This document shows, in pieces, positions 38,838-39,824 of a DNA stretch of 64,000 bases. The notes under the pieces are model-generated. The model saw only the letters and a list, made by a program, of their open reading frames with translations, was not told the DNA's origin and did no database searches. A program made the position numbers and the translations under genes. The number at the start of each line of letters is the position of its first letter. Position 1 is the stretch's first letter. The stretch covers positions 4,798 to 68,797 of the IMG/VR virus record IMGVR_UViG_2531839202_000008; one strand, 5' to 3'. The DNA is from a virus. Taxonomy: Duplodnaviria; Heunggongvirae; Uroviricota; Caudoviricetes.

Positions 38838-39824
38838 TTGCTAGCGGACGCCCGATATCTGCTTCGATATGTCAAGATTGGGTGCGTGATCCAGATATGG
38901 GAAACTCGCTACGCTGCAGGCAAGAGCGTCGCAAGAGCGATGAGAATCGCATGCTGGCTGGTGGCCGCAGAGTACGTCGTCCTGGTGGGTTCATTCGTAT
39001 TGATGGCGCTATTCGACGAACGCACTTTAGGGTATACGGTGGCCGCTTACGGCGCGCTGACCTTTATGATGCTGGTGCTCGCATCCTTGTGCATAACTGG
39101 AGCACTCTCCGTAGTTCTTGAAAGCGCGGAGAAACAGCGCCTTCGGGAAACCCCTTCGACTGTCTGGGGGATGATTTGGACCCCCTCGCCGCAGAATTTG
39201 ATGTTTGCCACGGCTTTCATGCCGGCACTGGCGCTAATTGGTCCACTGCTCGCGGCTAAGGGATTGGATCCTAATCACTCCCCGATACCCGTGTTGAACT
39301 GCTTTATCATAATTGCGATGGCATCCCTTGGCGCGATGCATGTTCGTTGCTTCTGGCGTATTTGGCGGAAGATGGATAGAGAGGTCAAGAAGGGCGAAGA
39401 GGATCTATTCCGTGATTTCGACTGGACACTCTTTGACAGCGACGACAGGGCGCGCTTTCGCGAGAAGTATCCAAACACACACTGGAAGTTCCCCGCAGAT
39501 GCGGATTGTGACGCTGAGATCGACTGCTTCATCAGGCGTGCCAGGAGTATGCACTCCAGGATTCAATTGTTTAATGCGGTAATTGCATTGTTGATCACAT
39601 TTGCCGTCGGAGAGCTATTCAGGCGAACAATTACCGCTTGGGTCGAGATAGCAAGAAATAACGGTAGTACGCTTCTCGCGATGGGGGTGACTTTTGCGCT
39701 GTTCGCAATAATGGGATTCTTCTTTCTGCCCCTTCAACTCCAGCGGCGGGCCACTCGCTATGAGGACTTGCGGAAGGATTATGAAAAGTATCTTGAGAAA
39801 AGGGACACGCCCCCTGCGGCGTGA
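38838..39824 (+). CDS. 6-TM membrane protein, visibly AT-richer than flanks (true start probably ATG at 38940)
   Basis: six hydrophobic helices with charged central loop; rare codons (TTA, ATA, CTA); GC about 50 percent by eye. Confidence 0.55.
   Translation: MLADARYLLRYVKIGCVIQIWETRYAAGKSVARAMRIACWLVAAEYVVLVGSFVLMALFDERTLGYTVAAYGALTFMMLVLASLCITGALSVVLESAEKQRLRETPSTVWGMIWTPSPQNLMFATAFMPALALIGPLLAAKGLDPNHSPIPVLNCFIIIAMASLGAMHVRCFWRIWRKMDREVKKGEEDLFRDFDWTLFDSDDRARFREKYPNTHWKFPADADCDAEIDCFIRRARSMHSRIQLFNAVIALLITFAVGELFRRTITAWVEIARNNGSTLLAMGVTFALFAIMGFFFLPLQLQRRATRYEDLRKDYEKYLEKRDTPPAA

Follow-up and report, generated by a model that had tools for sequence, protein, structure and literature searches.

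What is a solitary, AT-rich gene for a membrane protein doing at the end of the early region of a mycobacterial prophage? The question arises from an open reading frame on the forward strand, at positions 38838-39824 of a 64,000-nucleotide stretch of caudoviral DNA (positions 4,798 to 68,797 of IMG/VR record IMGVR_UViG_2531839202_000008; the whole stretch is called the window below). The frame had been picked out in an earlier note made from the sequence alone, and it is real: it matches annotated gene 27 of MW584150, where its 328 codons, counted from a TTG, are deposited as "hypothetical protein". No paper discussing the gene was found. The 7 kb around it are 100% identical to the Mycobacterium abscessus cluster MabC prophages prophi100A-2, prophiGD43A-3 and prophiGD33-1. 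Window coordinates equal those of the MW584150 record plus 24912, an offset that places the left end of the prophage at about window position 24913, with host DNA to the left of that point. Gene 27 is a dispensable and horizontally mobile single-gene AT-rich cargo and, as far as its sequence and predicted structure can tell, it is the founder of a small mycobacterial family and fold not described before.

The mobility of the gene is best seen in the position that it occupies. Gene 27 is the final rightward gene of the early region, where it follows RecE/RecT, DnaQ-like, PAPS-reductase-like and RepA-like genes and then gp26, a 400-residue zinc-ribbon/helix-turn-helix (HTH) protein; on its 3' side come four leftward genes (28-31) and then the late genes. 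In prophiCCUG48898T-1, gp26 is 97% identical to that of the window and the membrane protein just 38%, which makes a sharp mosaic boundary. Other MabC prophages with flanks of about 92-95% identity have different genes in the same slot: a BrnT-like toxin with its antitoxin in prophi104-2 (GC content of the BrnT gene, 0.54), a 227-residue protein and an HTH/M78 protein that matches the PADLOC model RmrA (Rosmer; 2e-62) in prophiGD44-1, a signal-peptide protease-like protein in prophi91-1 and a protein with a single transmembrane (TM) helix in GD39-2. The same variability is found in cluster MabB, in which prophiGD16-1 has a 55% identical homologue after a gp26-like gene (29% identical to gp26), while prophiGD43A-2 and others carry five small unrelated genes in the slot. 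Finally, the MabC phage phiGD57-1, which is identical to its prophage, is without any gene 27 homologue. This phage propagates lytically and forms plaques (PMC8092298), so gene 27 is unneeded for lytic growth.

Two of these alternative occupants deserve a separate remark. Gene 29 of prophiGD44-1, deposited as 'MerR-like helix-turn-helix DNA binding protein', consists of HTH_3 and Peptidase_M78 domains and, together with the upstream 227-residue gene, looks like a Rosmer-type defence pair (genes 28-29, L011:4037-5764). Gene 28 of prophi91-1 (L010:3775-4500) encodes a signal peptide and a 'TAGHC' motif that recalls trypsin-like serine proteases; it has no Pfam match at E <= 0.01.

The composition of gene 27 also sets it apart from its surroundings. 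Its GC content is 0.532 (0.617 at third codon positions) versus 0.691 (0.853) in gp26 and about 0.64 in the flanks, and it lies within the lowest-GC kilobase of the window, in agreement with the AT-richer gene initially described. The codon adaptation index (CAI) of the whole gene, 0.39, is under that of all 40 genes of the same prophage used as reference (minimum 0.476, median 0.665). Low GC is a feature of the family, as its genes range from 0.50 to 0.57 and their flanks from 0.60 to 0.68 at 9 of 11 loci. Gene 27 thus fits its description as a membrane gene that stands alone, has a foreign composition and closes the early operon of a prophage.

Before its product can be discussed, the start of the gene has to be established. 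The earlier note had proposed that translation begins at ATG 38940, on the grounds that the first 34 codons are rich in rare codons. They are not: CAI is 0.392 both for codons 2-34 and for codons 35-328, rare codons make up 28% of the former and 30% of the latter, and among 294 windows of 33 codons the first ranks 136th. Moreover, the homologues with 55% and 38% identity conserve residues 17-34 (VIQIWETRYAAGKSVARAM), which contradicts a start at ATG 38940. Most homologues start instead at the equivalent of GTG 38886, the codon of V17. In most of the distant relatives found by an exhaustive HMMER search, the sequence opens with MI(E/Q)LxGxRYAVG at V17 (position 15 of the profile). The equivalent codon opens an ATG-ATY-SAR motif in 8 of 10 homologous loci, with a good Shine-Dalgarno sequence before several of them, and is a GTG in the window, in prophiCCUG48898T-1 (L005) and in L021. 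Nucleotide homology among four loci starts just about 15 nt 5' of this codon, and a tblastn alignment with a 27% identical relative (P0010) begins at record position 13974, i.e. window 38886. In the AlphaFold2 (AF2) model made from V17, the protein is ordered from residue 2 and residues 1-30 have a predicted local distance difference test (pLDDT) score of 91-97; the 16 residues that precede V17 only reach 32-34 when they are modelled, are unalignable with the equivalent extension of homologue P0004 and are missing in the other homologues. The annotated TTG 38838 is thus probably 16 codons too long, and we conclude that the protein has 312 residues, from GTG 38886 to a TGA stop. The two parts of the annotated frame are:

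38886..39824, + strand: conserved coding sequence of the protein with six TM helices, 312 residues (homologue starts, DNA homology, tblastn, AF2)
38838..38885, + strand: 16-codon N-terminal extension with the TTG start given in GenBank; not conserved and probably untranslated

Gene calls within the family disagree at the 5' end. The call of P0006 is 18 codons short, its true GTG-ATT-CAG start being further upstream, while P0004, prophiCCUG48898T-1 gene 25, prophiGD16-1 gene 19 and prophi100A-2 gene 27 are called 16-20 codons long. Inconsistent calls map to L021:9947-10000, L005:10001-10054 and L028:2276-2323.

The arrangement of six helices in three pairs that had been read from the sequence is supported both by hydropathy and by the AF2 helices. 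Using residue numbers counted from the annotated TTG, unless they are marked as counted from V17, the Kyte-Doolittle segments are 36-60/67-95, 119-140/153-170 and 247-266/281-300, and the same layout is found in all 29 aligned homologues. The median numbers of Lys and Arg in these 29 sequences are 2 at the N-terminus, 0 in the loop between TM1 and TM2, 4 between TM2 and TM3, 1 between TM3 and TM4, 16 in the large TM4-TM5 segment, 0 between TM5 and TM6 and 9 at the C-terminus. According to the positive-inside rule, both termini, the TM2-TM3 loop and the large segment would be cytoplasmic. The external loops have median lengths of 5, 12 and 15 residues and are unconserved. The AF2 model was computed from the 29-sequence family alignment (pLDDT 88, predicted template modelling score 0.80); a run with the five closest sequences (pLDDT 47) was discarded. 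Counted from V17, the model has an N-terminal beta-hairpin (strands 2-4 and 7-9), a third strand (83-85) at the conserved (D)KQ just after TM2, helices 13-42 (TM1), 49-80 (TM2) and 102-126 (TM3), a long helix 135-169 in which TM4 extends into the cytoplasm, a 50-residue helix 209-258 that leads back into TM5, and helices 262-277 and 280-307 (TM6 and a C-terminal helix). The corresponding features of the gene are:

38886..38921, + strand: N-terminal motif MI(E/Q)LxGxRYAVG, a predicted cytoplasmic beta-hairpin (62-86% conservation per position; AF2)
38943..39122, + strand: TM1-TM2 hairpin, followed by the (D)KQ motif at Q100, 93% conserved (hydropathy, AF2)
39192..39347, + strand: TM3-TM4 hairpin with conserved P129 and H168 (hydropathy, AF2, conservation)
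39348..39575, + strand: predicted cytoplasmic domain with the motifs DLFRxFDW, RFRxRY, WKxP and AEAxxYAxRAR (charge, conservation, pLDDT)
39576..39737, + strand: TM5-TM6 hairpin with conserved P298 and Q302 (hydropathy, AF2, conservation)
39738..39821, + strand: predicted cytoplasmic C-terminal helix with the motif LxxLxKxYE, L311 and Y315 being invariant (alignment, AF2)

The TM4-TM5 segment (residues 171-246, 76 amino acids) contains 16 Lys/Arg and 16 Asp/Glu and includes the peptide quoted in the earlier note, which had described a highly charged cytoplasmic loop. Its charge and its predicted side of the membrane agree with that description, but rather than a floppy linker it appears to be a domain, since it is conserved and, with pLDDT 93-98 across most of its length, confidently folded. 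In the model and the family alignment, it is the best conserved and most confidently folded part of these proteins. More generally, the conserved positions of the alignment are almost all predicted to be cytoplasmic or at the inner membrane boundary. W216, L311 and Y315 are invariant, F194, W196, F207, K217, P219, E227 and A235 are at least 90% conserved, and Q100, H168 and Q302 form a conserved polar ring at the inner membrane boundary.

The family to which this protein belongs is small. A word-indexed search of 5.8 billion proteins retrieved 4 clusters, to which a second one, made with the family profile and saturated by candidates, added none, and the exhaustive HMMER search of 1.84 billion representatives gave 31 matches, 24 of them at E <= 1e-10 and all with the same architecture. 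About 31 distant homologues sharing one architecture put the observation of gene 27 far beyond chance. All the named members belong to the Mycobacteriaceae: several very divergent lineages of M. abscessus, M. salmoniphilum, Mycolicibacterium fortuitum and Mycolicibacter; the distant ones are just 17-25% identical to the protein of the window. Among 50,697 phage records, the gene family is present in only five M. abscessus prophages. Close-alignment searches found only the three known alleles in IMG/VR and no close relative in the GTDB species-representative genomes, and a tblastn search of plasmids did not find the family.

Comparisons with known families and structures were negative. The models of Pfam-A and NCBIfam include those for transporters, channels and CPBP/Abi proteases. 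Pfam, PHROGs and NCBIfam gave nothing significant for the gene 27 protein or for any of the 29 members, the only weak signal being a sub-threshold Phage_holin_3_6 match (E = 0.0058) in 1 of the 29. The search of the PDB sequences with the family profile found nothing, and Foldseek retrieved at most generic helical bundles, both from the PDB (best E = 0.32, TM-score <= 0.30) and from BFVD (best E = 0.027, TM-score <= 0.33). The earlier note had pointed to homology with a housekeeping transporter or with a phage structural or lysis protein as the observation that would speak against its functional proposal; none was found in Pfam, PHROGs, NCBIfam, the PDB or BFVD.

The genomic contexts of the distant members are diverse. 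In M. abscessus and M. salmoniphilum, members lie at the edge of 5-7 kb serine-integrase islets, beside a host DUF2752 gene. Another member is at the end of a phage-satellite-like element of about 8 kb with integrase, excisionase and D5-primase genes. This kind of element, seen at L021:10861-18017 and in L022, includes a serine integrase, an HTH_17 excisionase-like gene, a D5_N/DUF5906 primase, small genes and a Phage_cement_2-like gene, and the six-TM member lies on the other strand at the distal end; the element resembles the satellites of the phage-inducible chromosomal island type, in an actinobacterium. Two members are located at the 3' end, and on the same strand, of cassettes made up of two WXG100 genes, a polymorphic toxin (PT) and its immunity gene (Imm) (L017 and L023). 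In L017 the six-TM gene comes after the cassette with gaps of 3-5 nt, and in L023 an AIPR abortive-infection gene stands between the two and a GmrSD type IV restriction gene is found upstream. PT-Imm cassettes are expressed in lysogens and are located by the prophage attachment junctions (PMC8092301). Other members are in islands that contain either AbiEi_4 and HEPN-RES genes or a set of AbiEi_4, HTH+M78 and helicase/beta-CASP genes, lie near a VapBC pair or adjoin a DUF4226 protein. In M. fortuitum the gene is solitary and oppositely oriented between alr and a pyridoxal phosphate (PLP) decarboxylase gene in up to 70 contigs; its GC content is 0.515 versus 0.681 in the flanks, and this AT shift, together with its orientation opposite to its neighbours, makes it look like an insertion.

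Since no neighbour is common to all these contexts, the protein works alone. In L013-L016 and L021 the six-TM gene is preceded by a gene of opposite orientation, and the M. fortuitum loci L024-L026 have opposite-strand genes on both sides of the six-TM gene, so that members in these loci need their own promoter.

Several functions may be proposed for such a protein. The one that we favor, with a probability of about 40%, is superinfection exclusion or abortive infection directed against other phages, as the earlier note had suggested in proposing an Abi/Sie-type effector or an ion-channel-like toxin, both of which are hypotheses. That suggestion is upheld in part: the slot of gene 27 is taken by BrnT/antitoxin or the RmrA pair in sister prophages and its relatives adjoin AIPR, AbiEi, HEPN-RES and GmrSD genes, which fits it, while the PADLOC models of known defence systems are unmatched. 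The protein would be the product of a conflict gene acting in the host cell's own membrane, where the cytoplasmic domain could do the sensing or gating and the bundle of six helices could be the membrane effector. Sensor and effector being on one chain, this reading would not require a two-protein pair of the RexA/RexB type. A more specific version, which is tentative and in our opinion doubtful, would make the family a single-polypeptide membrane defence module of Mycobacteriaceae mobile elements, in which a domain that senses an infecting phage, or some other signal inside the cell, gates the bundle and thereby blocks DNA entry or collapses the membrane potential, i.e. a one-protein analogue of RexAB with an unrelated fold.

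A number of observations weigh against a function in exclusion or abortive infection. Gene 27 is co-oriented with the early lytic operon and directly follows it. No sigma-70-like promoter or terminator was detected in the interval between gp26 and gene 27, with the sigma-70 consensus being applied to DNA from a mycobacterial host, and manual inspection found no TANNNT in the 91-nt spacer. The prophage has been reported to be mostly silent in lysogens outside PT-Imm (PMC8092301). Mycobacterial accessory DNA is rich in toxin-antitoxin and defence genes, which makes guilt by association weak, and some occupants of the slot are not obviously related to defence, such as the secreted protease-like protein of prophi91-1. 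The M. fortuitum copy stands among housekeeping genes. PADLOC-DB v2 contains no family that matches the gene 27 protein at E <= 1. Lastly, the external loops are very short and unconserved, which argues against the type of exclusion that masks receptors.

Among the alternatives, the one that fares best is a lysogenic-conversion factor, kept for the benefit of the bacterium, that alters the physiology of the host envelope (ion homeostasis, stress or drug tolerance, intracellular survival). M. abscessus and M. salmoniphilum have retained members beside host genes, at the margins of decayed serine-integrase islets, and M. fortuitum has a solitary gene in up to 70 contigs, which speaks for this hypothesis; the co-location with virulence-associated PT-Imm cassettes and the fact that the slot also takes non-defence cargo are congruent with it. 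Nevertheless, the protein resembles no family of transporters, channels or enzymes, and identities of 17-25% within one species complex, a patchy strain-specific spread and the negative result in the GTDB representatives are more like the turnover of an arms race. We consider this explanation unlikely.

Alternatively, the gene could be an accessory of the lytic cycle, expressed with the early genes upon induction or infection, that serves the phage itself by superinfection exclusion during lytic growth, by the timing of lysis or by anchoring replication or assembly. Its position in both MabC and MabB, immediately 3' of the early operon and on the same strand, the lack of a promoter- or terminator-like site between gp26 and gene 27 and the reported silence of most of the prophage in lysogens (PMC8092301) all suit such a role. 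Yet the gene is missing from most MabC and MabB genomes with flanks of about 92-97% identity, phiGD57-1 grows lytically in its absence, most members are found outside intact phage operons and are apparently independently transcribed, and there is no lysis cassette nearby, the weak holin match (E = 0.006) concerning 1 of 29 members. A lytic role of this kind is thus rather improbable.

A link with type VII secretion and polymorphic toxins, either as (orphan) immunity to a membrane-acting WXG100 toxin or as an accessory to toxin export, is more improbable still. In its favor are the two members at the 3' end of same-strand WXG100-WXG100-PT cassettes, a third one about 2 kb from a WXG100 pair and another one followed by a DUF4226 protein. 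However, the PTs of the two cassettes (L017:6837-9995 and L023:4752-9433) are 62% identical (550 aa) and have a soluble PD-(D/E)xK-like C-terminal domain (EVKSG), and each of them is directly followed by a soluble protein of 156-160 residues (50% identical) that is the obvious cognate immunity. The two six-TM proteins diverge far more than the toxins, as they share 29% identity along about 60% of their length, and the genes between cassette and six-TM gene are variable (a 126-residue protein or AIPR). Furthermore, the copy of the window has neither WXG100 nor PT gene among its annotated neighbours, several members lack type VII secretion genes nearby, and conservation is cytoplasmic, not membrane-exposed. 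The candidate that consists in a PT-immunity protein was rejected, because the position downstream of the toxin is taken by the soluble protein and the six-TM gene, set apart by variable genes, diverges much more than the toxin. The co-location of both is best explained if they are junction-proximal cargo.

The last possibility, a housekeeping membrane transporter or channel captured by phages, would agree with a polytopic protein that has conserved polar residues at the membrane boundary and with the lineage found between alr and the PLP decarboxylase gene in M. fortuitum, but it is very improbable given that no transporter or channel family or fold matches the protein, that the M. fortuitum copy is AT-shifted (0.515 versus 0.681), on the opposite strand and insertion-like, and that the family is very small and found in accessory DNA only.

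The surroundings of gene 27 are of interest in themselves. The product of gp26 (37592-38794, deposited as 'HTH DNA binding domain protein') combines a zinc-ribbon-like CxxC...CxxC motif near its N-terminus with a second Cys cluster and, towards the C-terminus, an HTH; it has no Pfam match. A gp26-like gene is found at the same early/late boundary in MabC and MabB (29% identity; the MabB copy is L002:9071-9952), and gp26 may be a regulator that marks a recombination hotspot for cargo. It was also considered as a functional partner of gene 27 and rejected, as gp26-like genes are present with or without the six-TM gene and are missing from all contexts other than MabB and MabC.

On the other side, the leftward cassette gp28-gp31 (39993-42678, minus strand; GC content 0.55-0.65) lies within the rightward early/late region. 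It encodes a 268-residue protein with several HTH_23-like repeats (gp28), a 185-residue protein with a lipoprotein-like signal ending in AATAAC (gp29), a 72-residue protein with 2 TM helices (gp30) and a 364-residue protein with an N-terminal TM helix, a long Q/P-rich region, a coiled coil and glycine-rich C-terminal TM helices (gp31). Apart from HTH, these four proteins have no Pfam or PADLOC match. The cassette is present in most MabC prophages, regardless of the content of the adjacent slot, and missing from prophi104-2; its leftward orientation suggests lysogenic expression. One further feature lies where it meets gene 27:

39806..39823, no strand assigned: GC-rich hairpin CACGCC...GGCGTG, overlapping the gene 27 stop codon, where gene 27 and leftward gene 28 converge

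This hairpin has a T-rich tail on the minus strand and resembles a terminator of the leftward cassette placed within the 3' end of gene 27. A scan of the whole window for Rfam families and tRNA genes found none.

The interest of the functional question stems from the host. Compassionate-use therapy with mycobacteriophages is directed mainly at M. abscessus. Why the strains of this species differ in phage susceptibility is for the most part unknown, and the cargo of prophages is a leading suspect (PMC9934374). If gene 27 is a true exclusion or abortive-infection gene, it would represent a new single-gene type of defence and a marker predicting phage resistance, and the one-protein defence module, if true, could be one of the reasons why clinical M. 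abscessus strains resist therapeutic phages. If it is not a defence gene, it is one more hypothetical prophage moron. In either case, the correction of the start to GTG 38886 and the reannotation of the RmrA-like gene in prophiGD44-1 are small practical gains.

How does gene 27 compare with known systems? A prophage moron that encodes a membrane protein is a familiar kind of gene, and the evidence shows no unusual mechanism for this one. Holins are small proteins, usually under 150 residues, with 1-4 TM helices, encoded beside the endolysin gene; a holin was ruled out here, as the protein has 312 residues and 6 TM helices and its annotated neighbours include no lysin or holin. BrnT/antitoxin in prophi104-2 and the RmrA-like pair in prophiGD44-1 share with gene 27 an AT shift, dispensability and the slot that follows the gp26-like gene and precedes the next conserved block. 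They are, however, two-gene soluble systems of the toxin/antitoxin type with recognisable domains, whereas gene 27 encodes one membrane protein without any. The single-gene superinfection-exclusion membrane proteins, such as T4 Imm, P22 SieA and lactococcal Sie2009, are generally much smaller and have one or few TM helices. Like gene 27, they are single membrane genes, phage-encoded, non-essential and variable among related phages; unlike them, gene 27 has its conserved surface on the predicted cytoplasmic side, unconserved external loops of 5-15 residues and no sequence relationship to any of them.

The closest functional analogues are the RexB-like proteins, membrane components of two-gene abortive-infection systems (lambda RexAB, mycobacteriophage Sbash gp30/gp31, Gordonia phage CarolAnn gp44/gp43 and Butters gp30/gp31). 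Those of the actinobacteriophages too are prophage-borne and polytopic, have both ends and a conserved central loop in the cytoplasm, are encoded in variable genome regions and have no other homologues. In Sbash gp31 the central cytoplasmic loop is functionally critical, and R70A and D73A abolish defence. RexB-like proteins nevertheless cross the membrane with four TM helices and are always paired with a cytoplasmic RexA-like (DUF4747) protein encoded next to them. None of the 29 family members has a RexB-type Pfam match, neither DUF4747 nor another shared domain was found in gp26 or the other neighbours tested, and the family is without a conserved neighbour, some of its copies being solitary. 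The gene 27 protein has six TM helices, about 310 residues and a predicted folded 76-residue cytoplasmic domain of its own. The conserved cytoplasmic loop shared with the RexB-like proteins is a matter of analogy, not of homology.

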